Positions 25,632 to 62,392 of a DNA stretch of 64,000 nt are shown piece after piece. The DNA comes from Alphaproteobacteria bacterium (GTDB lineage: Bacteria > Pseudomonadota > Alphaproteobacteria > Micavibrionales > UBA2020). The position numbers were made by a program, and so were the translations under genes. Each line of letters starts with the position of its first letter. Positions within the stretch are counted from its first letter, which is position 1. The notes beneath the pieces were generated by a model. The model was not told the origin of the DNA. It saw only the letters and a program-made list of their open reading frames with translations, and did no database searches. The DNA is taken from the NCBI GenBank assembly GCA_041287865.1, contig JBGGMV010000066.1, positions 7,966-71,965 on the forward strand, read 5' to 3'.

Positions 25632-25668
25632 TGAAACGCTGTGAAACGGTTTGAAACGCTCTGAAACG
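25632..25668 (+). repeat. Phased direct repeats, block 1: 4 x TGAAACG at exact 10-bp spacing
   Basis: TGAAACG occurs at 25632, 25642, 25652 and 25662. The block ends ...TGAAACGCATAAGCGCG. Confidence 0.9.
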
Positions 25669-25757: not shown

Positions 25758-25784
25758 TGAAACGCTCTGAAACGCTTTGAAACG
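25758..25784 (+). repeat. Phased direct repeats, block 2: 3 x TGAAACG at exact 10-bp spacing
   Basis: TGAAACG occurs at 25758, 25768 and 25778. The block ends ...TGAAACGGATAAGGCGG, parallel to block 1. An inverted copy (GTTTCA) lies at 25733-25738 and a near copy (CTGAAAAC) at 25803. Confidence 0.9.
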
Positions 25785-25957: not shown

Positions 25958-26740
25958 ATGGCCGGTGACAGCGACAAAACGAAACTTTTTCAGGCGGTTG
26001 CCTCCTATACGCTGGGCAAGGGAATCAAGCGTGACATGCTCCTTACCGATTACCGCGCAGTCGTGAGCGAGCTTGCGACCGGCAGCCGTGCGCCATTCTT
26101 CATGGGCGATATCGCTGATTACATGAACGAACATCCCGACCCCGATCCGGATTCCGACGCGGACAAACCGCTGCAGGCGCTTCAGGGCCTGCATGTTGAC
26201 AAGTTCCGTGTCAGCATCGTCATGGCTGAAGACGGCGGAAAGCGCGTATTCCTGCCGGTTTGTGAAGACATGCACAACGGGCGGCTGCTGGTGGTGGGAC
26301 CGGGCGGCGGAAACTATGGCGGCGCGCCGGTGGAAAAACTCGTTTATGTCGACGGAAGTTCCTCGACCGCCGTAGAGGCGATTAACAGTTTCATTGACAA
26401 AGGCATCCTCGAGCGCGGGGCTGTTGGCATCAAGCCGGCCAGCGCCCACAAAATCAATCAACACTTGGTACAGGCGATCAGTCTCGTTGCCGATTTATCG
26501 AGCCTCACCGAAGAGATCAACATGGCGCCCAAGGGCCAGTCGCCCGAGATGGTGCCTATGCTGTCAGGCACGACGCTGGGAAAATGTTTCCAGGCGGTCG
26601 CTGCCGGGCAAGCGGATGTGGACACCTGCATCATCGCGCGGCCCCACTTCAATCCCGAAGAGGCGGACGCCCAGGTGATGCAGGGCGTCACGTCAGACAT
26701 CAAGGTCGGCAAGCCTTTCAGTTTCAAGCCGAAGGCATGA
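25958..26740 (+). CDS. Hypothetical protein, paralog pair member P1
   Basis: 260 aa. It is similar to the next ORF (LFQAVASY/RFKAVATY; FRVSIVMAEDGGKRVFLPVCED/FKITIVQAEHNDKPVFLPVVED; LLVVGPG/VLVVAPG). The C-terminus is IKVGKPFSFKPKA. Confidence 0.7.
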   Translation: MAGDSDKTKLFQAVASYTLGKGIKRDMLLTDYRAVVSELATGSRAPFFMGDIADYMNEHPDPDPDSDADKPLQALQGLHVDKFRVSIVMAEDGGKRVFLPVCEDMHNGRLLVVGPGGGNYGGAPVEKLVYVDGSSSTAVEAINSFIDKGILERGAVGIKPASAHKINQHLVQAISLVADLSSLTEEINMAPKGQSPEMVPMLSGTTLGKCFQAVAAGQADVDTCIIARPHFNPEEADAQVMQGVTSDIKVGKPFSFKPKA

Positions 26741-26750
26741 GGAGATAAAC

Positions 26751-27461
26751 ATGGCAAACGAAACAGATATCAAAAGGCGATTCAAGGCGGTCGCGACTTA
26801 CGACACGGCCGAGCGGGTGGAAACCTTGCAGCTTGCGCCCGCGGGCAATGTGATCGCGGCGCTGGATTTTTACCGGCAGGATCTTTTCCTCACCGGCATC
26901 GACAAGGCGATAGGCACCCAGGCCACCGACCTGCCTAAAGGCGCGCTGGATATCCTGACGGGTCGCCATGTCAACGGCTTCAAAATCACCATTGTGCAGG
27001 CGGAGCATAACGACAAGCCGGTTTTCCTGCCCGTCGTCGAAGACTCCCTGCTGCAGGAAGTCCTTGTCGTGGCCCCCGGACCGCGCCCTGACAGTTGCGG
27101 CCCTGCTGTTGTCTATGTCGACAGCACCGACACCGACGCCTCTGCGCAGGTCAACGATTTCCTCATCCGCGGCGCGCGGCTGCGCGGCGAGCGCAGTTTG
27201 CTCGACCCTGAGGGCGCCAGGAATCTCATCGATGACATGATCACTGCTGTTTCAATGGTAGGCGACCTTCCGGAAACGCGGGCGATGGAAAATAACATCA
27301 CGATCGGCGCAGCCTTCGCGGAAGTCGCGCGCGGCAATTCCGGGATGGTCAACTACGTGATGGCCTGCAACCTTATCGACTACAAGGCCGAGGCGACCGA
27401 AGGAACGCAAAAGCCCATCGCCGTGCGCGGGCCGCTGTCCTTCAAGGGCAGGGTGGTATAG
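26751..27461 (+). CDS. Hypothetical protein, paralog pair member P2
   Basis: 236 aa, 10 nt after P1, with a GGAG RBS. The C-terminus is IAVRGPLSFKGRVV. Confidence 0.7.
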   Translation: MANETDIKRRFKAVATYDTAERVETLQLAPAGNVIAALDFYRQDLFLTGIDKAIGTQATDLPKGALDILTGRHVNGFKITIVQAEHNDKPVFLPVVEDSLLQEVLVVAPGPRPDSCGPAVVYVDSTDTDASAQVNDFLIRGARLRGERSLLDPEGARNLIDDMITAVSMVGDLPETRAMENNITIGAAFAEVARGNSGMVNYVMACNLIDYKAEATEGTQKPIAVRGPLSFKGRVV

Positions 27462-28460
27462 TCAGCGTTTTTTGTTGTTCTTTTTCGGGGCGGGTTTTGC
27501 CGTGCCCTCCGCGCGTTGCGCGGGTTTTTCCGTTTCGGGCTTGTCGACCTTCACCACGATATCGGGCTGGTCGTTGATGACCAGTTCGCCGCCCGCCAGC
27601 TGCTTGATCGTCGTGCCGTGGCCGCACATCTCGCTCACCTCGTTGAAGGATTTGATGGCGCGGTTGACGATGCGCTGATCCAGGTCTTCCTTCGCGGCGG
27701 CGACGATGAATTTCGCCAGCGCTTCGTGTTCTTCTTTTTCGGGCCCCGCGTCGCCGTATTCCTTCATCTCGTATTTCGTCATTTCCATGCCGGCGGCGGT
27801 ATTGGCGAGGAAAAGGCGTTTTGTATCCGGCTCCATGCCGCCAAGCTCCAGCAGGCGGACGTCTTCCTCCGGCGCCATCATCATGCGGTGCATTTCGTCG
27901 ACCATGCCGACCGTTTCAGGCTGGAACAGGCCGGTGATATCGTCGAAATTATCGGCGTCCATCAGCAGCGCCGCCGCCGTCATCGCGTCAACGCGCGCAT
28001 CGGGCATGCGGCCGCGATAGGTTTCCTCGATAATCCCGGCGGTAATCACATCGGCCATCGACAGGTTCGATACGTTTTCAAGCGCATCGCGGATTTCGCG
28101 GCGGCGCGGCAGCATGTGCCCTGCGGCGTCGAAGGTGCGTTCCTGCTCGGCGCGCATTTCCTGTTCCAGCTCGAACATGTCGTCGTCGCTCAAGGCTTCG
28201 TCGTCGTCGCCCAGCGGAATGTCGGTGCCGTCATCGTCGTCGGATTCAATGCTGATGCGGCGGCCCGTGCCGTCGATGCCGCGATAGGGCTCGAACTTCA
28301 GGTCGTCGGGGTTGAGTTTCGATTTGTCGGGTTCCGGTTTCGGCGGTTCGGGGTGCAGATCCTTGCCCACGTTCTCGTTATCATCAAACGAGAATTCCTT
28401 GCCCTTGCCGGTGGCGGCCTTGAAGGCTTTCTTCAGCTCTTTTTTGTCAGGCTCGGTCAT
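27462..28460 (-). CDS. Hypothetical acidic protein
   Basis: 332 aa, rich in D and E, with a Lys-rich C-terminus. It is on the same strand as, and downstream of, thyA-folA. Its stop codon abuts the P2 stop codon with zero spacer. Confidence 0.65.
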   Translation of the reverse strand: MTEPDKKELKKAFKAATGKGKEFSFDDNENVGKDLHPEPPKPEPDKSKLNPDDLKFEPYRGIDGTGRRISIESDDDDGTDIPLGDDDEALSDDDMFELEQEMRAEQERTFDAAGHMLPRRREIRDALENVSNLSMADVITAGIIEETYRGRMPDARVDAMTAAALLMDADNFDDITGLFQPETVGMVDEMHRMMMAPEEDVRLLELGGMEPDTKRLFLANTAAGMEMTKYEMKEYGDAGPEKEEHEALAKFIVAAAKEDLDQRIVNRAIKSFNEVSEMCGHGTTIKQLAGGELVINDQPDIVVKVDKPETEKPAQRAEGTAKPAPKKNNKKR

Positions 28461-28547
28461 GACGTCCCTAATAACCGTAATGCTTTCGGATTCGCAAAAG
28501 ATTACAGTATTATGGAAGCTGATGGAAGGGGCTAGGGTGTAATATTA

Positions 28548-29060
28548 TTACTTTTTCCGCTCAAGGACGGTGATCGTGTAGTCGCAGGTTTCCCCCGGCA
28601 GGGCAGGGTGATGCTCGCGTTTGACTTCTTTCCACTCGGCCTTGTCGAAGGTCGGGAAATGGGTATCGCCTTCGGGCGACAGGTGAATTTCGGTCAGGTA
28701 CAGGCGGTCGGCATGGGGCAGGGACAGGCGGTAAATTTCCGACCCGCCGCCGATAAAGATTTCACCGACGCCGTCTTTCTCCGCAATGCCGCGCGCCATC
28801 TCGATGCCGTCCTCCAAAGTGTGGACGACGAAGGCGCCTTCGGCTTTGTAATTGGTATCGCGTGTGACGATGATGTTCGCGCGTTTGGGCAGCGGCTTGC
28901 CCAGCGATTCAAAGCTCTTGCGGCCCATGACGATCGGGTGGCCGATGGTCGTGGTTTTGAAATACTGGAATTCGGATTTAATCTCCCAGGGCATCCAGCT
29001 GTCCTTGCCGATCACGCCGTTTTCGGCGACCGCTGCGATAAGCGAAACTTTCACCGTCAC
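28548..29060 (-). CDS. folA: Dihydrofolate reductase
   Basis: Carries [40 protein letters not shown] and LYLTEIH motifs. Confidence 0.92.
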
Positions 29061-29851
29061 ACCGCAACCTTTCCTTTAATGGCCGCATGGTGCTGGTAAC
29101 CGGTGATTTCAAAGTCTTCGAACTTGAAATCGAACAGGTTTTTGACGGCGGGGTTAAGCTTTACCTGCGGCAGCGGCAGCGGGTCGCGCTGGAGCTGCAG
29201 TTTGCACTGCTCGATATGGTTCACGTAGATATGCAGGTCGCCGAAGCTGTGAATGAATTCACCGGGCTGCAGCCCTGCCACCTGCGCGATCATCAGCGTC
29301 AGCAGCGCATAGGAAGCGATATTGAACGGCACGCCAAGGAAAACATCCGCAGAGCGTTGATAAAGCTGGCAGGACAGCTTTCCATCCTGCACGTAAAACT
29401 GGAACAGGCAGTGGCAGGGGGCCAGCGCCATTTTGGGAATGTCGGAGGGATTCCACGCCGTCACAATCAGGCGGCGGCTGTCGGGATTGGTTTTAATCTC
29501 GTTTAAAATGTTCGAGATTTGATCGATAGCACCGCCATCGGCTGCAGGCCAGCTGCGCCACTGCGCGCCGTAAACGGGGCCGAGATCGCCGCGCTCGTCC
29601 GCCCATTCGTCCCAGATGCGGACGTCGTTCTCCTTGAGATACTTGATATTCGTATCGCCCTTCAGGAACCAGAGCAGTTCATGGATGATCGATTTGGTAT
29701 GGACTTTTTTGGTCGTGACCAGCGGAAAACCCTTCGCCAGATCATAGCGCGACTGGTGGCCGAAGGTTGAAATGGTGTCGACGCCGGTACGGTTCTTTTT
29801 CAGCTTCCCGTTATCAAGGACATGCTGCATCAACTCCAGATACTGTTTCAT
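29057..29851 (-). CDS. thyA: Thymidylate synthase (ThyA type)
   Basis: Starts at [12 protein letters not shown], giving 264 aa. It has DRTGTGT-like NRTGVDT, the catalytic [12 protein letters not shown] region and DLHIYVNH. It has a 4-nt overlap with folA. Confidence 0.95.
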
Positions 29852-29910
29852 GTGCGCTTCCCCCTGCTGAAAACCGATTCTATCACAAGGCAATATAGAG
29901 AAGGCAGCCA

Positions 29911-29947
29911 AAAATAAAAGCGGCGGAAGGGGGTAAATCCTTCCGCC
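29911..29947 (-). terminator. Rho-independent terminator after the 29971-30486 gene
   Basis: A 9-bp perfect stem (ggcggaagg / ccttccgcc) is followed on the minus strand by GCTTTTATTTTT. Confidence 0.6.
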
Positions 29948-29970
29948 ACTTAGATGTTTCTCTTAATCCC

Positions 29971-30486
29971 TTAAGGTCTCGGCTGGCTGCCGGAGGGAGC
30001 CGGTGCCGGAGCGGGCGCCGTCTCGGCCGGCCCGCCGGCAACAGCGCCGGCAAAGGCCTCGGCCGCCGCGCCCTTGGCGGGCAGCTGCGCGCGTTGCGCC
30101 CTGTAAAGGTCCTGCGTTTCAGCCAGTTCGCGTTCTTTCTGGTCCAGCACGCTGTGATAACGGGCGGTCAGCTTGCCGTTGTCGATGTCGGCGTTGATAG
30201 CTTTCTGGGCGCGGTTGCCTTCCTTGACCATGGCGACGATGCTGGTGACCATGCTACCGGCAAAGCCGATCAGCAGGGGGATACCGACGGGGGGCGCCCA
30301 GACTGCGGCGAGAACGGACAGGATTAAAAAGACACCCGCATTCATTCCCGCCTTGCCGGCGATTTTGTCAGCCGTATCCATGACGGCGCGCGATGCCTTA
30401 AACACGGGGTGGGAGTTCGCTTCTTCGGCTTTGCGGTATTCGTCGAAGAAGGCTTCGTTGATGTCTTTTTTGAGTTGGTCGTCCAT
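29971..30486 (-). CDS. Hypothetical membrane protein
   Basis: Starts at MDDQLKKD after an AGAGGGA RBS. It has two central TM helices (GVFLILSVLAAVWAPPVGIPLLIGFAGSMVTSIVAMV) and an Ala/Pro-rich tail. Confidence 0.55.
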   Translation of the reverse strand: MDDQLKKDINEAFFDEYRKAEEANSHPVFKASRAVMDTADKIAGKAGMNAGVFLILSVLAAVWAPPVGIPLLIGFAGSMVTSIVAMVKEGNRAQKAINADIDNGKLTARYHSVLDQKERELAETQDLYRAQRAQLPAKGAAAEAFAGAVAGGPAETAPAPAPAPSGSQPRP

Positions 30487-30689
30487 TTTGAATGTCCCTC
30501 TGTCTTTATTATGAAAATTTGTATCAGTTATATGCGCCTTGTGCTTTGCTGTCAATTTTTAATAAAAAAATCTATAAATTACATATAGATAGAAGAATGA
30601 ATGTCTTCGGGAGGGAATCGCATTTGACATAATATTCCCAAAAATGATACCCTCATGCATTCATTTGCTTAACCCCAAAAGGGCCCTTC

Positions 30690-32105
30690 ATGGCGGAGAG
30701 CGACCAGACATCGACCGAAACCGCGCGTCTTCCGGCCGGCAGCCTTGTCGACAAGACGACGGGGAAGGTCCTCGGTCAAATATTGCTGGATAAACCGGAC
30801 AAAGGCCGCGCAGGTCGTCTCGCGCGCGCCGAGGCGGTCGCGCGTGTGGCGCGCCGCTGGCAGAGAGGGGATTTCCGCGCCTTCCAGCGCGGGCTTTCGC
30901 AGGCGCGCCGCGACAAGGACAAGGCCGCGCTGGAAAAGGCTTTCAACCTTGCCGCCGAAGTGCCGGTTTTCAAGGAAGCGCTCGACTGGGCGAAGGAAAA
31001 CGGCATCGAGTTCTTTGTCGACCGCACCTGCTCGAAATACGTGGGGGCCTATTACACCGGCACGACCGGCGTGATCGGCGTCAACCACCGCGCGCTGCAA
31101 AACCCGCAGCTGATGGCGATCTACCTGACGCATGAAATCCGCCACGCCTGGCAGGACGCGCATGGCATCATGGGCCATAGCATGAAACCCGATTATGCGG
31201 GCGAAGCGATCCGCACCGCGCTGGTCGAGGCCGACGCCATGGCCTTTGAAACCCTTGCCGCGCATCAGGCCGCGCGCGCCGTGCTGCAAAAACGGCAGGC
31301 TGAAAAAGGCCTGCCGCCCGACCTCGCCACCCGCCTGAAGCGCATGGAAAAGATGTGCGCCAATGCGGAAAGAGACCTCTGGCGCGGGTTTGAAACCTGG
31401 TTCCAGACGTCGCGTCCCTTCTTTTACTGCGAGGCGGTGGCGAAACGCGAGGCGACTGTGCTGGGGATAAGGGGCGAGGCGCCGAAAGACCACAAATATG
31501 AATTCAAGGCGATGATGATGCCGGGCGAGAAAACACGGCTGATCGATGTGACCGACGAGGCTGACTTCCAGAAGCTGGGCACGACTTTCTCGGGCGGCAA
31601 TTACCTGAACGAGAAGAAGCGCCGCGAATTCGTCAAGCATACCGTGAACAATCCGTCCCTTGCGCGCACCTTCTGGCGCGCGGGTGCGAAAACGCCGAAG
31701 CTCCTCACCGCGCTGCGTAAAAAAGAACTGCAGATGAAGCAGGACACGCCGCAACTGCATATCGACGCCACCGGCCAGCCGTCCGATATCCAGGCGCTGG
31801 CGAACCTGCTGGAAATAAAACTGAAAGCCCTGACGGAAGTGGAAAAGGTCGAGGCGGATAAACGCTCCAGCCTCATGCTTAATATGACGGTGACTTTCAA
31901 GAAAGGCATCGACCCCGTCACGGCCTTCCGCAACGCCGCCATCGCCCTCGACGGCCAGTGGGCGCATGTCGCGCCCTCGGTCATGAAGCTTTATATCGAG
32001 GGCATGAGCAAGACCATGTGGGGCGCGCGCGGGCGCCTTGAGCGCAACCCTTACCGCCCTCCCAATCGCACCCCCGGCCGCGTTATGCCTGCCGCAACCC
32101 CCTGA
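30690..32105 (+). CDS. Hypothetical protein with HExxH motif (possible zinc metallopeptidase-like)
   Basis: 471 aa with no signal peptide. The sequence LMAIYLTHEIRHAWQDAHG contains HEIRH, and an acidic residue run (EADAMAFE) follows about 40 aa later. Confidence 0.7.
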   Translation: MAESDQTSTETARLPAGSLVDKTTGKVLGQILLDKPDKGRAGRLARAEAVARVARRWQRGDFRAFQRGLSQARRDKDKAALEKAFNLAAEVPVFKEALDWAKENGIEFFVDRTCSKYVGAYYTGTTGVIGVNHRALQNPQLMAIYLTHEIRHAWQDAHGIMGHSMKPDYAGEAIRTALVEADAMAFETLAAHQAARAVLQKRQAEKGLPPDLATRLKRMEKMCANAERDLWRGFETWFQTSRPFFYCEAVAKREATVLGIRGEAPKDHKYEFKAMMMPGEKTRLIDVTDEADFQKLGTTFSGGNYLNEKKRREFVKHTVNNPSLARTFWRAGAKTPKLLTALRKKELQMKQDTPQLHIDATGQPSDIQALANLLEIKLKALTEVEKVEADKRSSLMLNMTVTFKKGIDPVTAFRNAAIALDGQWAHVAPSVMKLYIEGMSKTMWGARGRLERNPYRPPNRTPGRVMPAATP

Positions 32106-32174
32106 TATTGCGCCAAAACTGGCAAAGCCCCTGAAACTACTGGTTTTTTAATCTTTTTCCGCTATATTGAAGAT

Positions 32175-32536
32175 GTCCGGAGCAATCCGGACTATGACGA
32201 TAAACGCGCTATAAAATAGGCGAGACGGACCTGGGGGCGGTACCCAGCGGCTCCACCATTCTTCAAAAGGATTTGCGAAAGTTGTCTTCGCATCCGGTAT
32301 GGGGCCGAAATAGGATCGACGTGCGTAGTAAAGATGGTTGCTTTCGTCCGGCATTGTTCCGCCGTTATCGGGCTACTTTTATAAATGCTAACGACAACAT
32401 GCCCGCAAGGGCTGAACTCCGCCTCGTTGCTTAACAGCGACAACAGCGAAGTTGGCATTCAATTCCTAAGCTAGCAATAGCATAGGTGGGGCGTGGGGGC
32501 AGGCCTAGCAACAGAACTGCCCCCATTTTCTTTTTT
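32175..32536 (+). ncRNA. ssrA: Two-piece (circularly permuted) tmRNA; the 5' boundary is approximate
   Basis: The acceptor piece ends ...CTGGGGGCGGTACCCAGCGGCTCCACCA at 32258. The coding piece starts GGGGCCGAAATAGGATCGACG at 32301. GGGGCCG pairs with CGGCTCC, including the G3:U wobble. The tag ORF at 32387-32434 encodes ANDNMPARAELRLVA*. It ends in a hairpin at 32495-32524 plus a U-tract. Confidence 0.8.
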
Positions 32537-32563
32537 CAGTCCTTCCGAACGAGTTTTCATTTC

Positions 32564-33367
32564 ATGAGCACCCCCCAGAAACCAGCCGTAAAAATGCCGG
32601 TTCTGGTCAGGATTATTTTCTGGAAGGTTCACTCGCGGCAGATGGCCCTGACATGGGTACGGGTTCTCGGGGCCCTTGGCCTCGTCTGCGCTTTTTTCAG
32701 TTTGATGTCGCCCCTCAACGTTTATTTGTGGGTGCCTGCTATCTACTCTTTTGCCGCTGGGGCCCTGTGCTGGTGGTTATTGAAGTGGTTTGACAGGAAC
32801 GGCGTCTGGCCCTCTGCAACGCCGTCCAAAGGCCTGATAGCGGCGGTCTGGTGCATCCCGGCGCTGGCCGCGCTGGTGCTGGCGACTCTTGAGTTCTTTA
32901 TCGGGATCCATCACTTCTCGCACAACGGCATGTATCCCGGCCTGCCGGCAAAGAGCGTGATTTTTACCAATAAACGCGCCTATGCGGCGCCGTCAGACGT
33001 CAAGCGGGGGGATATCGTTTACTTTACCCTCGAAACAGAGGAAGAAACATTCAAGTTTATCTTGCGCGTCATCGGCCTTCCGGGCGAAACGGTGAAGAAT
33101 GCCGGCGAGGCGCTTTCCATCAACGGGCAGCCTGTCAAACGGAAACTGCTCCGCAAGGCTGACGATACAACAATCTTCCGCGAAAGCATTGGCGAGGCCT
33201 CCTATGAGGTGGCCTTCGATAAGACCCCGCCCCGCAAGCCACTCGATGTGACAATTACCGTGCCGGCTGACGCGTTCTTCGTCATGGCTGATAACCGTCT
33301 TAGCGCTTTTGACAGCCGGTGGTTTGGGACAGTTCCGTTCAGTGCAATCATCGGCAAGAAGTTTTGA
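32564..33367 (+). CDS. Signal peptidase I (S26) homolog with N-terminal multi-TM region, apparently lacking the catalytic Ser and Lys
   Basis: It retains S26 boxes (RGDIVYF, LRVIGLPGE, FVMADNRLSAFDSRWFG). The SM-PTL box reads NGMYPGL and the K of the (I)KR-GLPGD box reads L. I placed the start at ATG 32564 because track ORF 32486 overlaps the tmRNA terminator. Confidence 0.75.
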   Translation: MSTPQKPAVKMPVLVRIIFWKVHSRQMALTWVRVLGALGLVCAFFSLMSPLNVYLWVPAIYSFAAGALCWWLLKWFDRNGVWPSATPSKGLIAAVWCIPALAALVLATLEFFIGIHHFSHNGMYPGLPAKSVIFTNKRAYAAPSDVKRGDIVYFTLETEEETFKFILRVIGLPGETVKNAGEALSINGQPVKRKLLRKADDTTIFRESIGEASYEVAFDKTPPRKPLDVTITVPADAFFVMADNRLSAFDSRWFGTVPFSAIIGKKF

Positions 33368-33375
33368 GCGGACGC

Positions 33376-33404
33376 GGCGACGGCAGGGTCGCCCCGGTTT
33401 CTTT
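33376..33404 (+). terminator. Possible rho-independent terminator after the S26-like gene
   Basis: Stem ggcgac / gtcgcc with a 6-nt loop, then a T-rich run (ccggtttcttttcatttttt). Confidence 0.45.
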
Positions 33405-34445
33405 TCATTTTTTGGGCGTCAGCTTCAGCGGCTTTGAAACCTTCGCCGCCGTGTCCAGCGCCATGCGGAAATCGAGGTCGCCGTCCTTGTCGCAGAGCAG
33501 CCATGTCTGCCAGCCGCCGCTGCGGGCGTCTTTCGGCCTGACTTCCAAAGCGCCGTCGCTTTCCTTGCGCGTCACGAAATCGCCGGGGTGAACGACCTGG
33601 TAGATCGAGCCCGCGCCGGTGCCGAAGGTGTCGGCCGCCTGCCAGGCGCGGAAAGGGGTGGAGAGGGTATAGACGATATTTTTATCGCCCTCGGTCTCGA
33701 CGCGGGAAACGACGGTGCCGGAGCGGGGGCAGACCGCCCCTTGCGCGTATTCGGCGGCGGGCGATACATGCGAAAAGCTGATATCGGGCATGCGGCGGGG
33801 GTCGAGCGCATCGGCGGTTGTCATTTTATCGAGCATGCCCCTGCGGTCTTCCCAGACCACCAGCACCTGCCCTTCGGTGGCGACACCCTCGTGGTAGGAA
33901 GGTTTTCCTTCGTCGAAGCCCTGCCGCAGCGTATAGGCCTGCCCCGCCTTCAGCGGCACGACAAGGTAGCGGCTTTCGTCGCGGTAGTAGGAACAGTCGG
34001 AGAAATCGATGTCCATGAGCGGCATCAGGCGGGTCTCCGGCCTGCCCGGATAGTCGAGCGGCACCTGCTTGCTTTTGTCGGCGATCTGGTCGGGCACGAA
34101 GACCTGCCCGTCGGGAAAGGCGAAGGTCCACAGGCGCGGGAGGGCCTTGGTGACTTCCGTGGGCCTGTCGCCGCCGATGCCCGCATCGCGCAGCGCGCCG
34201 AACATCATCATGTCATGCGTCGACATCGTGACGCGGGGAAATTCGGAGAAACCGGGGTCGGTCTTTTTCATGCGCTTGACGAGGCTGGCCTCGAACAGCG
34301 CCAGCTGCTCGGGCGTGATCGCTGCGCCGTCGTGCTCGGCGGGCAGACGCTTCGCCCACCAGGCGGCCAGCGCCTGCAGGGCCGTGTCGGGCCACCAGCC
34401 CGATTTCGGCGCGGCCCTGCTGTTGAAAGCGTCGTTGCTGCTCAT
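33405..34445 (-). CDS. Hypothetical protein, tandem paralog Q1 (last of 4)
   Basis: 346 aa. It shares blocks with Q2-Q4 (ALAAWWAKRLP; IDFSDCSYYRDESRYLVVPLKAGQ; GQVLVV; PGDFVT). The C-terminus is KVSKPLKLTPKK. Confidence 0.75.
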   Translation of the reverse strand: MSSNDAFNSRAAPKSGWWPDTALQALAAWWAKRLPAEHDGAAITPEQLALFEASLVKRMKKTDPGFSEFPRVTMSTHDMMMFGALRDAGIGGDRPTEVTKALPRLWTFAFPDGQVFVPDQIADKSKQVPLDYPGRPETRLMPLMDIDFSDCSYYRDESRYLVVPLKAGQAYTLRQGFDEGKPSYHEGVATEGQVLVVWEDRRGMLDKMTTADALDPRRMPDISFSHVSPAAEYAQGAVCPRSGTVVSRVETEGDKNIVYTLSTPFRAWQAADTFGTGAGSIYQVVHPGDFVTRKESDGALEVRPKDARSGGWQTWLLCDKDGDLDFRMALDTAAKVSKPLKLTPKK

Positions 34446-35518
34446 GCGGGCGTTTTACCGGGAGTTAATTTCAAGGGCTTGCCGGCGGTGATCGGCTTGT
34501 CCAGCGCGTTCATCTCCAGCGTCTCGCCCCCGGGCGTGCAGGGGATGAAGCAGCTGAGGCCCCTTTCCATCGCGGCCTTGGGCAAGACGAAGTGCCGGTG
34601 GCCGCGGTCCATCTCCATCCGCGACACGAAGTCGCCGGGGTTGACGGTCTTGTAGTCGATGCTCCAGCCGGTGAGGAAGGTTTGCTTCGCCTCCAGCAGC
34701 TGCAGCGGGTGGGAAACCATGCGGTAGTGGCCCTTGTTGTCCAGTTTTTCCAGCGTGCCGTCGTAACCCTTGCCTTCCTTGTAGCTCGATTTCAGGCAGA
34801 CGGAGGCGGAGGTGACGTTCGGGTGAGACCGCAGGTCGAGCGCATCCGCCGCGGTCAGGCTGTCGTAGCCTTCCGTGCCTGCGGCATGGATGACCAGCAC
34901 GTCGTCTCCCTTTGCCTCCCGCTCCACGTAGGTCAGGGTGCCGTCTTTGGCGCGGCGCGGCAGCTGCACTTTCTGGCCGGCCTCCAGCTCGACAATCATC
35001 ATGCGGCTTTCCTGCCTGAACCAGAGCGCGCCGGTGAAATCGATATCGCCGTATTTGATAAAGGGCGTCGCGGGCTGCCCGCCATAGGCGAGGGGCTGGC
35101 CCGCGGCGAAAAGCTGCCCGTCGGTGTAAAGGCGCGTTTCCACGATGCTGGACTTCATCTCGTCATAGACATCGGGAATGCCCGCCCTTGCGCAGGCGTT
35201 TTTCAGCGGCGTCGAAGGGGCGCGGGTTGCGCCGGGCGGCTGGTTGTCGGCGTTGGTGACGTAAAGGCAGTTCGCAGGCGATTTGCTGGGCGGCACCTGT
35301 TTCAGCTCGTCCACCAGCGCCTCGGTAAAGGCCGCGCGCTGGGCAGGGGTGACGGTCGCGGTGATGATTTCTATCGACATGATGTCTGTTCCCACTCCCG
35401 TCTGGTATTCCTTGGGCAGTCTGTCCGTCCACCAGTTGGCGATCACGCGATACGTTTCTTCGGGCCACTTGAAGGCGTCGCTGGCGGCGTTGAACGCGGG
35501 GGTTTTTGTATCGGTCAT
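34442..35518 (-). CDS. Hypothetical protein, tandem paralog Q2
   Basis: 358 aa. Shared blocks are VIANWWTDRLP, IDFTGALWFRQESRMMIVELEAGQ and PGDFVS. The C-terminus is ITAGKPLKLTPGKTPA. It has a 4-nt ATGA overlap with Q1. Confidence 0.75.
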   Translation of the reverse strand: MTDTKTPAFNAASDAFKWPEETYRVIANWWTDRLPKEYQTGVGTDIMSIEIITATVTPAQRAAFTEALVDELKQVPPSKSPANCLYVTNADNQPPGATRAPSTPLKNACARAGIPDVYDEMKSSIVETRLYTDGQLFAAGQPLAYGGQPATPFIKYGDIDFTGALWFRQESRMMIVELEAGQKVQLPRRAKDGTLTYVEREAKGDDVLVIHAAGTEGYDSLTAADALDLRSHPNVTSASVCLKSSYKEGKGYDGTLEKLDNKGHYRMVSHPLQLLEAKQTFLTGWSIDYKTVNPGDFVSRMEMDRGHRHFVLPKAAMERGLSCFIPCTPGGETLEMNALDKPITAGKPLKLTPGKTPA

Positions 35519-36609
35519 GGGTTTTTGGCTCCGTTCATCTGTATCTGCAATGGCTTGCGGGTGGTGATGGGCTTGTCCAGCACGGTCGGGTCGATGAGTG
35601 TGCCGTCAGGCGTGCAGGGCTGCATGATGCGCCGGCCGTTTTCCGTCCAGCTTTTCGGGATGGCTTCGAACAAGTCGCCTTCTTTGGTCTGCAATTTCGA
35701 GACGAAATCGCCCGGCTGCAAGACGACATAGCCGTCCCGGCTGCGGGTGGCGAAGGCTTCGGTGACTTCCAGCATCTGCAGCGGGCCGGACAGTTTGCGG
35801 AACTGCCCCTTGTCGCCGACTTTTTCCAGCGTGCTGCCGGCGAGCGTGACGCCGTCGGAGAACGTGGCAGCATCCGCGATAAAGCAGTAGGGGATTTCGG
35901 GGTGGAGGTGCAGCCTGAACGCGTCCTCTGTCGTCAGCTTGTTGAAATCGGGGGTGTCGTTCGAGGGGATGACCAGCACCTTTCCCTCGCCCACACGCTC
36001 GGTTTCATAGACCCGCTTGCTGTCTTTCTCCCGCGCCAGCCTGCAGGTCTGGACCTTCTGCCCCGCATCGAGCGGTGCGACCAGGCAGCGGGTTTCCCGC
36101 CTGAACCAGCGGCAGCCGGTGAAATCGAGATCCTTCAGTTGCGTAAAGGTTGTGGCGGGCTGCGCCGCGTGCTCGATGCGGCCGTCGAGGTTGAAGATCT
36201 GCCCGTCGGCGTACAGCTGTGTCCACATGGTTTCAAGGCTGAAGAACGCGTCGAAGATGCCGGCTTTTTCAAGCGCGGCCTCCAGCGGCGCCGAATCCGC
36301 CCTGCCGCCGGGCGCATCGTGCGCGATGCAGTTGCTGTTGCTGACATAGATGAATTCGTTGCCGTAGCGGCCGGTGCGCAGGGGAACGGTTTTCAGCTCC
36401 TGCACAAAGGCGTCCTTGAAGGCGGCGAGATGCGCGGCGGTGACCTCGACCTTGACGGCTTTCTGGCCGACATCGTCGTCGCGGTCGTCGACAATGGTGA
36501 AGCTGGAGGGCAGCCGCCCTGCCCAGAATTCCGCCAGCGCGCGGGCGCTGGCGTCGCTCCACTGGGGCGGTCCGGCGTCGCTGGCGGCGTTGAAGGCGGC
36601 GGTTTTCAT
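35515..36609 (-). CDS. Hypothetical protein, tandem paralog Q3
   Basis: 364 aa. Shared blocks are ALAEFWAGRLP, LDFTGCRWFRRETRCLVAPLDAGQ and PGDFVS. The C-terminus is ITTRKPLQIQMNGAKNP. It has a 4-nt overlap with Q2. Confidence 0.75.
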   Translation of the reverse strand: MKTAAFNAASDAGPPQWSDASARALAEFWAGRLPSSFTIVDDRDDDVGQKAVKVEVTAAHLAAFKDAFVQELKTVPLRTGRYGNEFIYVSNSNCIAHDAPGGRADSAPLEAALEKAGIFDAFFSLETMWTQLYADGQIFNLDGRIEHAAQPATTFTQLKDLDFTGCRWFRRETRCLVAPLDAGQKVQTCRLAREKDSKRVYETERVGEGKVLVIPSNDTPDFNKLTTEDAFRLHLHPEIPYCFIADAATFSDGVTLAGSTLEKVGDKGQFRKLSGPLQMLEVTEAFATRSRDGYVVLQPGDFVSKLQTKEGDLFEAIPKSWTENGRRIMQPCTPDGTLIDPTVLDKPITTRKPLQIQMNGAKNP

Positions 36610-37715
36610 GCGGGCTGCCCCGGACGGTTGATTTTAAGGGGCTTCAGCGCGGTGATATCCTCGCCGGTCGTGGTGGGGTCGATCAAATTGCCTTTGTCGT
36701 CGGAGGCCAGCCAGCGGCGGGCGCCTTCCTTCAGCCATTCTTTTTTCACGACTTCGTGCCGCGCCTGTCCGTTCTCGACCGTGCAGGTCAGGAAGTCGCC
36801 GGGGGAGACGATCTGGTAACTGCGCCCGTCGCCGACGAAGAAAGGCGCCACCGCCGCCTTGGCGCGGAACGGCTTGCCGAGCGAGCGGTAATGGCCGGCG
36901 TCGCCGACCTTCTCGAACTTCTGGCCGAACTTGCCTTCGGGATTGGTGTAATCCGATTTCGGGTCGGTCATCGCGAAGGTGATATCGGGGTTCTTGCTCT
37001 GGTCGAAAAGATGCCGGCCGACGACGATATCGTCGAAATTCTTCGCGCCGGATTCAAAGATCACCAGCACCTGGCCTTCCTTGTCGACCGTTTCCTCGCG
37101 GTATTCCATCTTGCCCCAGCGCATCATGCCGGTGACGATCTTCTGCCCGACGGGAATATCGACCAGCAGGTAGCGGCTTTCGTCGCGGTACCAGTTGCAG
37201 CCCTTGAAATCGAGCTCGGCCGCGCCGGCCTGCGGGATTTTCGGGCGGTCGGGATGGTCGATGACCTTGCCCTCGGCGAAGGCCTGCCCGTCCTCGAACA
37301 GCGTGGTCGATGTTTTCCACGGCAGGGTGATCATGCCGTCGCCGATTCCCGCCGCCTTGAGCGCATTGGCCAGCGCCTCGCAGGGGTGGTAGTCGGTATT
37401 CAGCTTGATGCATTGCTGCTGCACATAGGTGCCACGTTCGCGCGGCGCCTGTTTCATTTCGCCGATCAGGGCTTCGACGAAGGCGTCATACTGCTCCTGC
37501 GTCACCTGAATTTTCAGCCGGTGTTTTTCCTTCATCGCCGTCACCTGCGCCACTTGGGCGCTGCCGCCGATATTGTCGAGTTCCTGTTTCGGAATGCCCA
37601 GCTGCTTCGCGCCCGGCAGGTGGTCGGCCCACCAGGTGGCGAGCGCACGGTAGCTGCCGTCGCTCCACTTCACGGGCGTGCTTTCCTCGTTGAATTGCTG
37701 GATTATTTCAGCCAT
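36606..37715 (-). CDS. Hypothetical protein, tandem paralog Q4 (first of 4)
   Basis: 369 aa. Shared blocks are ALATWWADHLP, LDFKGCNWYRDESRYLLVDIPVGQ and PGDFLT. The C-terminus is ITALKPLKINRPGQPA. It has a 4-nt overlap with Q3. Confidence 0.75.
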   Translation of the reverse strand: MAEIIQQFNEESTPVKWSDGSYRALATWWADHLPGAKQLGIPKQELDNIGGSAQVAQVTAMKEKHRLKIQVTQEQYDAFVEALIGEMKQAPRERGTYVQQQCIKLNTDYHPCEALANALKAAGIGDGMITLPWKTSTTLFEDGQAFAEGKVIDHPDRPKIPQAGAAELDFKGCNWYRDESRYLLVDIPVGQKIVTGMMRWGKMEYREETVDKEGQVLVIFESGAKNFDDIVVGRHLFDQSKNPDITFAMTDPKSDYTNPEGKFGQKFEKVGDAGHYRSLGKPFRAKAAVAPFFVGDGRSYQIVSPGDFLTCTVENGQARHEVVKKEWLKEGARRWLASDDKGNLIDPTTTGEDITALKPLKINRPGQPA

Positions 37716-37803
37716 TCGTTCCCCTTAAAAACTGCCCTCATTATAGTATCTTATGGTTAATATGGAGTTATCTCCCCGAAGCCCTTGTTTCCAGAGGATT
37801 TTA

Positions 37804-37832
37804 TTGACATAACCGCACCCTGCCGATAGTCT
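37804..37832 (+). promoter_or_regulatory. Sigma70-like promoter candidate for the 37862 gene
   Basis: TTGACA at 37804-37809, a 17-nt spacer, then TAGTCT at 37827-37832. An AAGGAGAG RBS lies just before ATG 37862. Confidence 0.35.
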
Positions 37833-37861
37833 GCCGTCCGTACATATAAAGGAGAGCAAAG

Positions 37862-38182
37862 ATGCCGATGGGCCCCGAGGAATTCGTCAAGGCGAACGAT
37901 TACACGCTGGTCGTCTCGCAGGTCTATGCGACCGAGAAACTGTCGAAGCCGACCCTGACCAAAATCTTCAACTTTGCTGCGCAGGAAGTCTCGACCATCT
38001 ATGAGCGCGGCTATGCCCGGGAAGGCATGGGCGTGGGCTTCGCCATCACCCGCGAGAGCAAGAATTTCAGCGAACTCGATAGCCTCGACGAAGTGGCGCT
38101 GATGCGCGCCAAGCTGGTCGACCTCGGCGGCCACCCGCCCGAGTTGCCGACCCTGTCGAAACCCCGCAAACTGGGCAATTGA
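37862..38182 (+). CDS. Hypothetical small protein, divergent from the Q array
   Basis: 106 aa with a strong RBS. The C-terminus (LPTLSKPRKLGN) resembles the Q/P-family tails. Confidence 0.55.
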   Translation: MPMGPEEFVKANDYTLVVSQVYATEKLSKPTLTKIFNFAAQEVSTIYERGYAREGMGVGFAITRESKNFSELDSLDEVALMRAKLVDLGGHPPELPTLSKPRKLGN

Positions 38183-38279: not shown

Positions 38280-38777
38280 ATGGCCCCCCGCAACCGAGAA
38301 GACGCCTTCCGCTACGACAAGATGGTCGAGAAGGCTTTGCGCGGCGTGGTCAAGCAGGCGCTGGCCGAGGTTGTTAAAGACGGTCTGGTCGACGACCACC
38401 ATTTCTACATCACCTTCTTCACCGACCGCCCGGGCGTGAAACTGCCGCCCTACCTGAAAGACCGTTATCCCGGTGAAATGACCATCGTGCTGCAGCACCA
38501 GTTCTACGACCTCGAGGTCGATGACGAACGCTTTACGGTGATGCTGTCCTTCAACAACGTGCCGGAACGCCTGACGATTCCGCTGTCGGCGATCACCATT
38601 TTTGCCGACCCCTCCGTCAACTTCGCGCTGCAGTTCCAGCCGCTGTCGGAAGAAGACGAAGACGAAATCCAGTTCGAAGCCGAAGAGCTTGATCTGGACA
38701 AGGACGACAAGGCGAAGAAAAAAGGCGAAGTCATTTCGCTCGACTCTTTCCGCAAAAAAGATAAAGACAAGACCTAA
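38280..38777 (+). CDS. sspB: SspB-family ClpXP adaptor (alpha-proteobacterial type)
   Basis: The sequence HHFYITFFTDRPGVKLPPYLKDRYPGEMTIVLQHQFYDLEVDDERFTVMLSFNNVPERLTIPLSAITIFADPSVNF is the SspB substrate-binding fold pattern. An acidic linker and a basic C-terminal ClpX-binding-like tail follow. I placed the start at ATG 38280. Confidence 0.78.
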   Translation: MAPRNREDAFRYDKMVEKALRGVVKQALAEVVKDGLVDDHHFYITFFTDRPGVKLPPYLKDRYPGEMTIVLQHQFYDLEVDDERFTVMLSFNNVPERLTIPLSAITIFADPSVNFALQFQPLSEEDEDEIQFEAEELDLDKDDKAKKKGEVISLDSFRKKDKDKT

Positions 38778-61432: not shown

Positions 61433-62272
61433 ATGAAAAGAGTTAATGCACAAAAGGGCTTCACGCTCGTCGAATTGGCGATCGTGATGACCATCATCGG
61501 CCTGCTGATCGGCGGGATTCTGAAAGGGCAGGAACTGATGGAAAACGCCCGCGTGACCTCGACCGTCGCGCAGGTGAAATCCTATTCGGCTGCCGTCACC
61601 AGCTTCAAGGACATGTACCAGTCCTATCCCGGTGACATGCCCGGCGCGGGCACCCGCCTTGTCGGCTGCCCCGGCGCGTCCGGTGCTGCTTGCGACCCTG
61701 TTACCGGCGCCGGTAACGCGGGTAACAACATCGTCGGCCTGACCACCTGGAGCACGGCTTGGGGCGCGCCTGGCGTGACCGCAACCACCGGCACCACGGC
61801 TGCCACGGCTGTCGACTCGGAAAAATACCTCTTCTGGGCGCACCTGCTGCTTGCCAACCTGATCGGCGGCGTGACGGATGAAGGCCTGAACAACGCGATC
61901 GCGTTCCAGTTCGGCCGCACCCATCCTGAAGCCAAGATCTCGGGCGGCTTTACGGCAGGCTATGCTACGGGCGTGATTGGCCCGGGCTCGCTGCAGCCTG
62001 CAGGCACCGGCATCTCGGGCACCATCCTCGCGCAGGTGGTTGCACCCGATGCAGCCCTGCCGGTCACGGCAAGCTCGAACCCTCTTGCTCCTCTGCGCGC
62101 CGCGCAGATCGACCGCAAGATGGATGACGGCCGCCCCGGCACCGGATATGTCCAGGCCTTCGGCCTCGGCACGTCCTGCTTCACGACCGCCACGGCCGGC
62201 ACGACGCAGTACACCTACAACGAGACCATCGCTACGAAAGACTGCGGTCTCCTGTTCCGTATTGAAGGCTAA
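61433..62272 (+). CDS. Type IVa pilin, large (279 aa), tandem copy 1
   Basis: The sequence MKRVNAQKG|FTLVELAIVMTIIGLLIGG has a short leader, Gly-1, Phe+1 and Glu+5. A C-terminal Cys pair (SCFTT...KDCG) forms a D-region-like loop. Confidence 0.92.
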   Translation: MKRVNAQKGFTLVELAIVMTIIGLLIGGILKGQELMENARVTSTVAQVKSYSAAVTSFKDMYQSYPGDMPGAGTRLVGCPGASGAACDPVTGAGNAGNNIVGLTTWSTAWGAPGVTATTGTTAATAVDSEKYLFWAHLLLANLIGGVTDEGLNNAIAFQFGRTHPEAKISGGFTAGYATGVIGPGSLQPAGTGISGTILAQVVAPDAALPVTASSNPLAPLRAAQIDRKMDDGRPGTGYVQAFGLGTSCFTTATAGTTQYTYNETIATKDCGLLFRIEG

Positions 62273-62315: not shown

Positions 62316-62392
62316 ACTCAAGCACTATATGAACTCGTCTCTACCAAGTGAACTTCCTCAAAAATCATGAAAAATCATGGGAGAAAAAATTC

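Follow-up and report, generated by a model that had tools for sequence, protein, structure and literature searches.

Why should proteins that appear unrelated end in nearly the same short, basic peptide? In the window, by which we mean the whole 64-kb stretch of DNA analyzed here, the preliminary description listed seven "otherwise dissimilar" proteins that place the pattern [KG]-P-[LFR]-x-[LFI] shortly before the stop codon, and it proposed a common sorting, secretion, docking, or degradation signal. Were a single partner to recognize the tail, the motif would serve to trace all clients of an unknown machinery in an uncultured lineage, and it could offer an initial hint at what two large orphan families do. 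If the tail is only a family-internal feature, it would deserve a small annotation note.

Genes and families that carry the tail

On re-reading, the seven ORFs and their C-termini were found to be as first quoted, with the motif 2–8 residues ahead of the stop in every case, and all seven exhibited a strong coding signature (GC3 of 0.72–0.84). They are as follows.

25958..26740, + strand: P1, an orphan protein of 260 aa with a net charge of -8
26751..27461, + strand: P2, 236 aa, a paralog of P1 (32% identity)
33405..34445, - strand: Q1, 346 aa, encoded by the last gene of the Q4-Q3-Q2-Q1 operon
34442..35518, - strand: Q2, 358 aa, for which an AlphaFold2 model was obtained (pLDDT 88.6)
35515..36609, - strand: Q3, 364 aa
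36606..37715, - strand: Q4, 369 aa, encoded by the first gene of the Q operon
37862..38182, + strand: a protein of 106 aa from a small family of orphans, with the C-terminus SKPRKLGN

The P2 gene starts 10 nt past the P1 stop with its own GGAGA ribosome-binding site, and the Q4-Q3-Q2-Q1 genes are translationally coupled via ATGA stop/start overlaps. The independence of the seven carriers had been overstated, because Q1–Q4 are paralogs (30–34% identity), as are P1 and P2, so that the seven proteins collapse to three independent families, namely P1/P2, Q1–Q4, and the 106-aa protein. Comparison of P with Q by hhalign gave a probability of 0.9% for four Q against two P sequences and 0.4% for 42 Q against the two P sequences, indicating at the sequence level two families with no detectable homology. 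The structure model of P1, built from two sequences, was poor (pLDDT 38), so that P and Q may be distantly related.

Neither family could be assigned to anything known in the resources searched. No Pfam domain was detected in P or Q, no signal-peptide-like hydrophobic N-terminal segment was seen in them by eye, and PDB-sequence profile searches with both families gave no match. A word-index protein search with Q2 and P1 as queries returned only self-matches, and a scan of a genome collection returned one spurious Paenibacillus fragment and nothing else. Relatives of the P family were absent from JGI metagenome contigs and viral contigs, and Q4 had no match in viral contigs, plasmids, or phages. 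The N-terminal domain of Q4 resembles phage family phrog_8937 (E = 3e-9), relatives of the Q N-terminal domain occur in a phage recombination module, and the Q family comprises at least 60 clusters at 50% identity. Assignment of P or Q to known defence systems was dropped because PADLOC gave no match for either, as was the idea of a compositional island, the GC content across the region being unremarkable.

Sequence and position of the motif

The six P and Q tails have more in common than the pattern first described, namely [DP]-I-x-[VAT]-x-[KG]-P-Φ-x-Φ, as listed below.

26696..26725, + strand: P1, DIKVGKPFSF, followed by KPKA and the stop
27414..27443, + strand: P2, PIAVRGPLSF, followed by KGRVV
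33420..33449, - strand: Q1, AAKVSKPLKL, followed by TPKK
34466..34495, - strand: Q2, PITAGKPLKL, followed by TPGKTPA
35542..35571, - strand: Q3, PITTRKPLQI, followed by QMNGAKNP
36630..36659, - strand: Q4, DITALKPLKI, followed by NRPGQPA

The consensus [DP]-I-x-[VAT]-x-[KRG]-P-[LIF]-x-[LIF], with 4–8 variable K/P/G/T-rich residues after it, stands in our judgement an even chance of being a lineage-specific short linear motif. It is strictly C-terminal in 6/6 P/Q proteins, ending 4–8 residues from the terminus. In each of the six proteins, the last 15 residues are charged +3 to +5 (+3 in P1), whereas the whole proteins are net -4 to -8, and only 18% of other tails reach +3. Basic K/P-rich tails are nevertheless common here, examples being ...KPAPKKNNKKR and ...AEPQKKKK.

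The codons of the motif differ synonymously among the copies (Pro as CCT, CCG, CCC, or CCA; Leu as CTG, TTG, or CTT), so that selection acts on the protein, and the motif is also present on the last gene of each operon. On these observations, a DNA-level 3′-end element of the repeat, recombination-site, or coupling-signal kind was rejected, and the motif is seen to be kept by purifying selection on the protein.

The fold of the Q2 model stops near residue 330, with residues 323–327 as its last strand, and residues ~335–358 have a pLDDT of 45–54 and no secondary structure. Thus, in the model, the Q2 tail lies in a basic and probably disordered extension past the folded domain, and the model gave no sign of the tail packing in cis on the Q domain. 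It had been foreseen that P and Q might prove to be one domain family whose last beta-strand simply has this sequence; the motif as the final strand of a shared domain was rejected on the hhalign probabilities below 1% and on the position of the Q2 tail outside the modelled fold. A Foldseek search with the confidently predicted Q2 fold found no match in the PDB at E <= 0.001 and, among viral models, two uncharacterised proteins only.

Rarity of the tail and resemblance between P and Q

The frequency of the motif was examined within the window. With the seven proteins set aside, 17,155 residues remained, in which the regular expression given in the preliminary description matched a single site; it matched nowhere in the final 20 residues of any of the 60 further called ORFs, and it occurred in 3/526 six-frame ORFs. 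Elsewhere in the window, the motif is thus almost absent. For graded comparison, we used a full matrix of 12 positions, derived from Q-family tails only, and a core matrix of six residues. On the full matrix, P1 and P2 were the two top-scoring non-Q tails in the window, with 12.3 bits (p = 2.7e-4 per random tail) and 6.0 bits (p = 5e-3), respectively; on the core-only matrix, the P tails scored about 0 bits. In direct BLOSUM62 comparison of tails, the P1–Q1 pair scored 32 and the P2–Q3 pair 31, placing them in the top 0.13% of 2,262 unrelated pairs, and the few equally high pairs were mostly low-complexity P/G/A- or E-rich tails. The window-level p after correction was about 0.02–0.03, which is not strong, the whole genome being scanned, for a motif that was defined after being seen and whose significance varies with the scoring model. 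On these sequence comparisons, the tail motif is real and is carried by two firm families, P and Q, in agreement with the earlier claim that it crosses at least two, and by at most three.

The third family, that of the 106-aa protein, is a doubtful member of the set as judged by its tail. SKPRKL scored 13.5 bits (p = 2.8e-4) on the core matrix and the whole tail 3.4 bits (p = 0.015, or approximately one such match expected per window) on the full matrix. The protein has no Φ-x-Φ pair, its close orthologs have SKARKM, and distant homologs retain only K-P. A 96-aa ORF in L004 ends in ...SKPLRLRYK; a relaxed pattern matches 4/142 (~3%) background ORFs, and this ORF was not counted as evidence.

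Conservation and loss

Among 12 tail-bearing Q proteins, identity was 37% in the body, 30% in the 14 columns before the motif, 63% in the motif, and 17% after it, and the remaining changes within the motif were conservative. At the sequence level, the motif is thus an island of conservation in hypervariable proteins. In two related genomes, P and Q proteins were 31–46% identical to the window copies, apart from two clear Q orthologs at 72–76%, whereas housekeeping neighbors were 88–99% identical (ThyA, FolA, SspB, and an ABC ATPase, 94–99%), indicating from sequence divergence that P and Q are fast-evolving families.

The expectation that orthologs would conserve the tail was borne out in part. 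Every Q gene with an intact C-terminus recovered from these two genomes retains [KRH]-[PA]-[LI]-[KRQ]-[LI], but the one P-family gene recovered from a relative, at the same locus (L013), lacks the tail, as do most distant Q-family members. Phage proteins that consist of the Q N-terminal domain alone also lack the motif, and there are single-copy members of the family that have tail-like ends (P0020). Both families include members with and members without the tail, and it is therefore a modular and easily lost add-on.

Comparison with known C-terminal signals

Substrates of VirB/VirD4 type IV secretion in Agrobacterium and Bartonella have unstructured, positively charged C-terminal translocation signals (PMC8714903, PMC11098119). 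The P and Q tails are similar in that they lie within the last ~20 residues, are net positive, and are predicted to be disordered in the Q2 model; the proteins are also, like VirB/VirD4 substrates, unrelated, fast-evolving, alphaproteobacterial, and without a Sec signal peptide. However, the VirB/VirD4 signals are set by an Arg-rich charge pattern or an added BID domain, and not by K-P-Φ-x-Φ. The Arg-rich consensus is R-x7-R-x-R-x-R. P and Q have the unstructured and positive C-terminus (pLDDT 45–54 in Q2; +3 to +5 in the six proteins) and neither the Arg-rich consensus nor a BID-type domain, their tails being Lys-rich with 0–2 Arg. No type IV secretion genes were found in the 64-kb window (of a 145.7-kb contig) or in related contigs.

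The tails are also like those recognized by AAA+ proteases (SspB, LarA), which are short hydrophobic-plus-basic peptides on a flexible C-terminus and are transferable between proteins, and the P and Q genes adjoin sspB and ssrA.

32136..32527, + strand: ssrA, a permuted two-piece alphaproteobacterial tmRNA with the tag ANDNMPARAELRLVA
38280..38777, + strand: sspB (Pfam SspB), the tail of which, ...EVISLDSFRKKDKDKT, is unlike the P/Q tails

The SspB tail binds the zinc-binding N-domain of ClpX, and its spacing is L-x-x-Φ as against Φ-x-Φ in P and Q. Against the Q-tail matrix, neither the SspB tail nor the ssrA tag scored better than chance. The SspB tail (ISLDSFRKK) scored -6.5 bits on the full and -0.4 bits on the core Q matrix and was not among the top tail pairs, and the ssrA tag ANDNMPARAELRLVA scored -8.7 and 2.2 bits, respectively. 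Termini of the ssrA-like ClpX C-motif 1 type (...LAA or ...VAA) were not found either, those of P and Q being KPKA, GRVV, TPKK, KTPA, AKNP, and GQPA. In the LarA degron, which Lon binds, two valines are spaced i/i+2, and the degron has to stand at the extreme C-terminus and end in His (PMC10665427). Degrons of the LarA/Sul20 type have their hydrophobic i/i+2 residues within the last five, whereas the P/Q motif lies 4–8 residues from the end with no terminal His, and the tails do not match this type, although Φ-x-Φ is present. The clpX gene is absent from the window. The Q array directly adjoins ssrA in relatives too, and the flanks of ssrA are a hotspot for variable genes in this lineage, which explains the adjacency with no need of a functional link. 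The early suggestion of a link to ssrA/sspB proteolysis is therefore reduced to adjacency, the tails resembling neither the tag nor the SspB tail.

In small heat-shock proteins, the Φ-x-Φ strand of the I-x-I/V motif docks in a hydrophobic groove (PMC12925178, PMC6119766). As in this motif (and in BAG3 IPV), Φ-x-Φ of P and Q lies in a flexible C-terminal extension with a variable polar tail after it, and it is often preceded by basic residues or proline. P and Q differ in using Leu/Phe rather than Ile/Val and in having the proline just before the first Φ as an integral part. The Q pairs L-K-L, L-Q-I, and L-K-I fit [ILV]-x-[ILV], and P has F-S-F and L-S-F, in which Phe is outside the classic set. 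There is no alpha-crystallin (HSP20) domain by Pfam in either family or by Foldseek of Q2 against the PDB.

Family 1 encapsulins take up unrelated cargo proteins, which may be encoded far from the shell gene, by means of a short peptide borne at the C-terminus by a disordered linker; P and Q are similar in these respects. The core of the cargo peptide is ...G-S-L... (Φ-x-Φ-G-S-L-[KR]). No P/Q tail has G-S-L, example cargo peptides scored below 0 bits on the Q matrix, and no encapsulin shell gene was found in the window. Beta-clamp-binding motifs (QL[SD]LF, QLxLxL) stand at the ends of many unrelated proteins and serve one hub. They share alternating hydrophobics with the P/Q tails, and a phage recombination module contains relatives of the Q N-terminal domain; however, the leading Gln is missing in all copies, a third hydrophobic position occurs in few, and all 14 tails examined have Pro before the first hydrophobic residue (Ala in one copy). 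A sortase or exosortase signal (LPXTG, PEP-CTERM), which goes with an N-terminal signal peptide and has a hydrophobic helix and a basic end after the motif, does not match, there being by eye no signal-peptide-like segment and only 4–8 polar residues after the motif. Nor does a PDZ or tail-specific-protease ligand, which keeps a fixed register to the free carboxylate, since the distance from motif to end varies from 2 to 8 residues. Taken together, the tail, judged from its sequence, fits none of the known C-terminal signals with which it was compared.

Possible function of the tail

We favor, at about even confidence, the reading that the P/Q tail is a lineage-specific docking or targeting motif with a separate partner. 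The idea of a portable C-terminal peptide put forward in the preliminary description fits unrelated families and a conserved tail outside the Q2 fold, but nothing beyond adjacency speaks for the readers suggested with it. P and Q, which are unrelated, fast-evolving, acidic overall, and made in the cytoplasm, would each dock through this portable peptide. Past the proline, the two alternating hydrophobic side chains may insert, as an extended strand, into a groove of the partner, the flanking lysines may steer the peptide to an acidic surface, and all P and Q copies would thereby be brought to one common reader. That reader could be a machine of the type IV coupling-protein kind that exports or translocates in one step and takes unstructured positive C-termini, or it could be an AAA+ protease (ClpX or Lon) with an N-domain that docks substrates or adaptors, each unlikely when taken singly; something else acting in trans is a clearly weaker candidate.

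In a broader proposal, which we rate as unlikely, K-P-Φ-x-Φ would be the signal of an undescribed handling system in an uncultured alphaproteobacterial genus, for example a new class of export signal or a new hub-docking motif. Its clients would be hypervariable and partly phage-derived orphans (P, Q, and perhaps the 106-aa family), encoded in variable islands on either side of ssrA and active in some biological conflict as, for example, effectors, defence, or anti-defence. Hypervariable bodies with an invariant short tail have the look of effector and cargo systems, and the motif, if read by one partner, could open the way to a new pathway for secretion, degradation, or assembly.

The docking reading has to be weighed against the view that the tail has no common function, being conserved separately in each family, with the P–Q likeness due to K/P-rich convergence, to ancient shared sequence, or to a post-hoc pattern. 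This is a minority view that has to be taken seriously, since there are only two firm families with ~10 shared residues, +3 basic K/P-rich tails are frequent (18% of the others), the P tails score ~0 bits on the core-only matrix, the L013 P gene and many Q-family members lack the tail, and the corrected window-level p is ~0.02–0.03. However, P1–Q1 and P2–Q3 are both extreme in tail similarity, and through partly different residues; the conservation island is sharp and stands in a predicted disordered region of hypervariable Q; and the motif is strictly C-terminal in all six proteins.

It is rather less probable that the tail is an assembly element, entering a groove of a neighboring P/Q subunit and holding the co-translated paralogs together as hetero-oligomers. 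The ATGA overlaps of Q and the 10-nt spacing of P1 and P2 suggest equimolar co-production, which is typical of the subunits of one complex, every paralog has the tail, and Φ-x-Φ in a flexible extension with a variable polar stretch follows the grammar of small heat-shock proteins (PMC12925178, PMC6119766). Assembly leaves the same tail on two unrelated folds unexplained, however, unless P and Q bind each other, and it accords poorly with a Q2 model in which the tail shows no sign of packing on the Q domain in cis, with two families devoid of an alpha-crystallin domain, and with single-copy members that have tail-like ends (P0020). Least probable is a non-specific, unstructured basic-hydrophobic anchor that would keep acidic cytoplasmic proteins on the anionic inner membrane or on nucleic acid through the avidity of oligomers. 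Two bulky hydrophobic side chains, a net charge of +3 to +5, and a variable distance to the C-terminus would suit such an anchor, and P1 KPFSFKPK appears similar to eukaryotic basic-hydrophobic membrane-binding segments. The conserved proline and the exact Φ-x-Φ spacing argue instead for specific recognition, the residues after the motif vary freely, there are just two hydrophobic residues, and the tail cannot form the amphipathic helix of known bacterial membrane-targeting sequences.

Neighboring genes

No reader of the tail was found within the window or in any related contig. The downstream pilus cluster, which had been pointed to as a possible reader, is an MSHA-type type IV pilus, and its association with the tails does not go beyond adjacency; no C-terminal cargo signal is known for pili of this type. 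A link to a neighboring S26-like gene was also considered and was rejected, the gene being missing from relatives that retain the Q tails. By inspection of its N-terminal hydrophobic segments, the peptidase-like domain of the S26-like protein would face the periplasm.

Two independent families carry the tail motif

The preliminary description had reported a [KG]-P-[LFR]-x-[LFI] motif at the C-termini of seven dissimilar proteins, namely, P1 and P2 (tandem orphans of 260 and 236 aa), Q1–Q4 (orphans of 346–369 aa), and a 106-aa protein, all of which exhibit strong coding signatures. Their genes and the nearby tmRNA gene are as follows.

25958–26740, +, P1
26751–27461, +, P2
32136–32527, permuted tmRNA gene (ssrA)
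37715 down to 33405, −, Q4-Q3-Q2-Q1
37862–38182, +, 106-aa gene

The C-termini had been quoted correctly, and the position of the motif, 2–8 residues ahead of the stop, was confirmed on called ORFs. However, Q1–Q4 are paralogs with 30–34% identity, in which K-P-L is among the few invariant columns, and P1 and P2 are also paralogs (32% identity), so that three families, not seven dissimilar proteins, are represented. No significant Pfam or NCBIfam match was obtained for the P, Q, or 106-aa family. Homology between P and Q was undetectable, with profile-profile probabilities of 0.9% and 0.4%, and the motif thus crosses at least two families, as had been proposed. The tail pattern rests on two independent families, P and Q.

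Outside the seven proteins, the pattern as first described occurred at a single site in 17,155 residues; it was absent from the last 20 residues of the 60 other called ORFs, and among 526 background six-frame ORFs three contained it. On a 12-position matrix built from Q-family tails only, with random tails of the composition of real C-termini as the null, the best non-Q tails were those of P1 (12.3 bits, p = 2.7e-4) and P2 (6.0 bits, p = 5e-3), although such significance varies with the scoring model and the motif was defined post hoc, after it had been sighted. When all tails were compared by ungapped BLOSUM62 scoring, P1-Q1 (KVGKPFSFKPK vs KVSKPLKLTPK, score 32) and P2-Q3 (KPIAVRGPLSFK vs KPITTRKPLQIQ, score 31) each ranked in the top 0.13% of 2,262 unrelated pairs, and low-complexity tails made up most of the few pairs scoring as high or higher. 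The matrix and BLOSUM62 similarities therefore indicate that the P/Q pattern is longer than first described, [DP]-I-x-[VAT]-x-[KG]-P-Φ-x-Φ (Φ, hydrophobic). It is real and moderately interesting.

The place of the 106-aa protein in this set is borderline. Its tail scored at chance level on the full Q-tail matrix (3.4 bits, p = 0.015); on a 6-residue core matrix, SKPRKL reached 13.5 bits (p = 2.8e-4). The Φ-x-Φ pair is absent. Close orthologs have SKARKM, and distant homologs retain only "K-P", which there belongs to another conserved stretch, GG-x-PPELP. Three members of the family lie in tandem in a metagenomic relative that is more distant (contig L005, 2–1041), and their K/P/G-rich ends differ (...HKPKPGLGG, ...GKAVPRTGLT, and ...GKPLHPRLG). 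On another contig (L004, 2625–2915, −), an unrelated 96-aa ORF that adjoins a 106-aa-family gene ends in ...IEQPSKPLRLRYK, a good core-motif match; as about 3% of background ORFs match the relaxed pattern, this single match may be due to chance.

The tail is an add-on, outside the fold in the Q2 model

A profile of Q1–Q4 found 60 cluster representatives, 32 of them with E < 1e-10. Conservation of the tail was evaluated in 12 tail-bearing Q proteins (the 4 in the window, 6 representatives, and 2 from related contigs), in which the mean pairwise identity was 63% for the 5-residue motif, with the remaining changes conservative, 37% for the folded body, 30% for the 14 columns ahead of the motif, and 17% for the residues past it. 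The variants in Q were KPLKL, KPLKI, KPLQI, RPLKL, RPIKL, RPLRI, HPLRL, and KALKL. The codons of the motif vary synonymously and, therefore, the constraint is on the protein, not on the DNA.

Conservation in orthologs, however, is partial: the tail is kept by all five Q genes of the related contigs L011 and L013 but not by the P-family gene of L013 or by distant Q members. The former protein ends in ...MAGQKTTAPSAPKA without the extension of about 20 residues that bears the motif in P1 and P2. The more distant Q-family members have P/K/G-rich ends without the motif, a few showing look-alike ends (EKPFSL, LRPLSKL, and RFKPKP), and stand-alone versions of the Q N-terminal domain lack the tail. 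The tail is thus an add-on, variably present in both families.

An AlphaFold2 model of Q2, built on an alignment of 42 Q-family sequences, had a mean pLDDT of 88.6 and a pTM of 0.81; the P1 model was unusable. The last strand of Q2 comprises residues 323–327, and the final ~25 residues have a pLDDT of 45–54 and no secondary structure, so that the motif lies in an extension, probably a disordered one according to the model, and not in a strand of the domain. With the motif beyond the last strand of the Q2 model and no homology detected between the P and Q profiles, it is probably not the last beta-strand of one P/Q domain family. P1, P2, and Q1–Q4 are acidic (net −4 to −8), yet the charge over the final 15 residues is +3 to +5. 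A strongly acidic 332-aa orphan encoded between P2 and folA (27462–28460, −) also has a very basic end, ...KPAPKKNNKKR, and shows how frequent basic K/P-rich ends are among orphan proteins of this lineage; its L013 counterpart is 88% identical, a degree of conservation not seen in P and Q.

The Q2 model had no match among PDB structures (best E = 0.016) and only two among viral models, both uncharacterised; profile searches of PDB sequences found nothing for either family. The N-terminal ~120 residues of Q (about 23–140 in Q4) match the phage family phrog_8937, with function unassigned (E = 3e-9), and this domain also stands alone in proteins of about 130–150 aa. One such relative (contig L009, 3223–3621) is encoded on a phage-like contig among ORFs without a Pfam match, and a RusA resolvase gene lies closely downstream of it. 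The more distant Q-family members are single chromosomal genes amid housekeeping genes, and no relatives of P were found in the collections searched.

P and Q lie in a hotspot of variable genes

Three related contigs (L011, L013, and L003) are syntenic with the window. In L011, which matches the window at 99% identity in SspB and the ABC ATPase and at about 88–93% in the DNA of aligned blocks outside the Q genes, the order is ABC, SspB, the 106-aa gene, and three Q genes (tails SRPLKLKTPVEPK, GKPLKIAVKAPT, and SRPLRITPKK), with ssrA directly after. L013 (ThyA 94%, FolA 97%, and the acidic neighbour 88% identical) has two Q genes (tails GKALKLSSKKPLP and HPLRLIQKSKT), ssrA, a DUF6782 gene, thyA, folA, the acidic protein, and the P-family gene, and L003 has Q, the 106-aa gene, SspB, and ABC, its Q gene being cut by the contig end so that the C-terminus is missing. 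Compared with those of the window, the Q proteins are 31–46% identical, except for two clear orthologs (72–76%), and the values for the P-family protein of L013 and for the DUF6782 protein are 34–38% and 55%. Between close genomes, the products of P, Q, and DUF6782 (window 25958–27461 and 30690–37715) are thus 31–55% identical, in contrast to 94–99% for ThyA, FolA, SspB, and the ABC ATPase; such low identity of P and Q in near-identical backbones indicates that they are hypervariable loci in a hotspot of variable genes.

The gene content varies on both sides of ssrA, with a Q copy number of 3 or 4; the DUF6782 and 194-aa genes are absent from L011, and a signal-peptidase-like gene near ssrA occurs in the window only. 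The flanks of the tmRNA gene, judging from gene content, behave like a variable island. The suggested links of the tail to ssrA, sspB, and the pilus stand as adjacency and gained no support beyond it, and the variable character of these flanks accounts for that adjacency without a functional connection.

The signal-peptidase-I-like (S26) gene (32564–33367, +) lies between ssrA and Q1 and encodes extra N-terminal hydrophobic segments; at the same position in L011 and L013 it is absent, and the Q array directly adjoins ssrA. In an alignment with 4nv4, a Bacillus enzyme of known structure, Gly stands in place of the catalytic Ser (…NGMYPGL) and Leu in place of the catalytic Lys (…FILRVIGLPGE), and the protein appears to be catalytically dead.

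Possible role of the tail

The tail does not fit, and was rejected as, an ssrA-like or LarA-like terminal degron, an SspB-type tail (that of the same organism), an Arg-rich type IV secretion consensus, an encapsulin cargo peptide with its G-S-L core, a clamp-binding motif, a sortase-type signal, or a PDZ ligand. The scores of several of the reference peptides compared with it serve as a rough check only. Like type IV secretion signals in general, the P/Q C-terminus is probably unstructured and is positively charged, and the I-x-I/V motif of small heat-shock proteins follows the same Φ-x-Φ grammar.

We favor, with an even balance of confidence and doubt, the reading that the tail is a lineage-specific short linear motif, which would enter a partner as an extended strand and dock there with the help of its basic flanks. 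The existence of the motif, its modularity, the constraint on the protein, and, for the Q2 model, its place beyond the fold have been demonstrated; we infer such docking, and a common reader, that is, a partner recognising the tails of both P and Q. No reader was found; an export machine and the N-domain of an AAA+ protease are about equally probable candidates, each of them doubtful. That the P and Q tails have no common function at all is rather unlikely, yet deserves consideration. The tail might instead sit in a groove of a co-translated paralog and serve assembly, which we consider improbable. ATGA stop/start overlaps connect the four Q genes (33405–37715), implying translational coupling, and because of this overlap Q4, Q3, and Q2 each finish with a codon whose third base is A, which accounts for their terminal Ala or Pro; P2 starts 10 nt past P1 with its own ribosome-binding site. 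A non-specific anchor to membrane or nucleic acid is very improbable.

Surrounding genes and repeats

The window is part of a 145,694-bp contig of a metagenome-assembled genome. The neighbours are ordinary alphaproteobacterial housekeeping genes (pheS, aroE, coaE, dnaQ, secB, mltA, ribF, lspA, miaA, degP, hflKC, mrp, folA, and thyA), and sspB and an ABC-2 exporter are also close to the P/Q region. Between mrp and P1, about 170–330 bp upstream of the latter, TGAAACG heptamers are arrayed with an exact 10-bp period, four copies (25632–25668) and then three (25758–25784); the 17-nt double-unit pattern, with 0 expected by chance, occurs nowhere else in the window, and the region ahead of the Q operon has no such array. 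From their sequence, the arrays look like iterons or like direct repeats to which a response regulator would bind. From 44 kb on, the window has an MSHA-type type IV pilus cluster, including MshE-, GspF/PilC-, PilT-, and MshL-like genes. Two tandem type IV pilin-like genes (61433–62272 and 62348–63232), both with the N-terminal methylation motif, encode proteins that are about 97% identical and share their final 22 residues, and this pair is an ordinary recent duplication.
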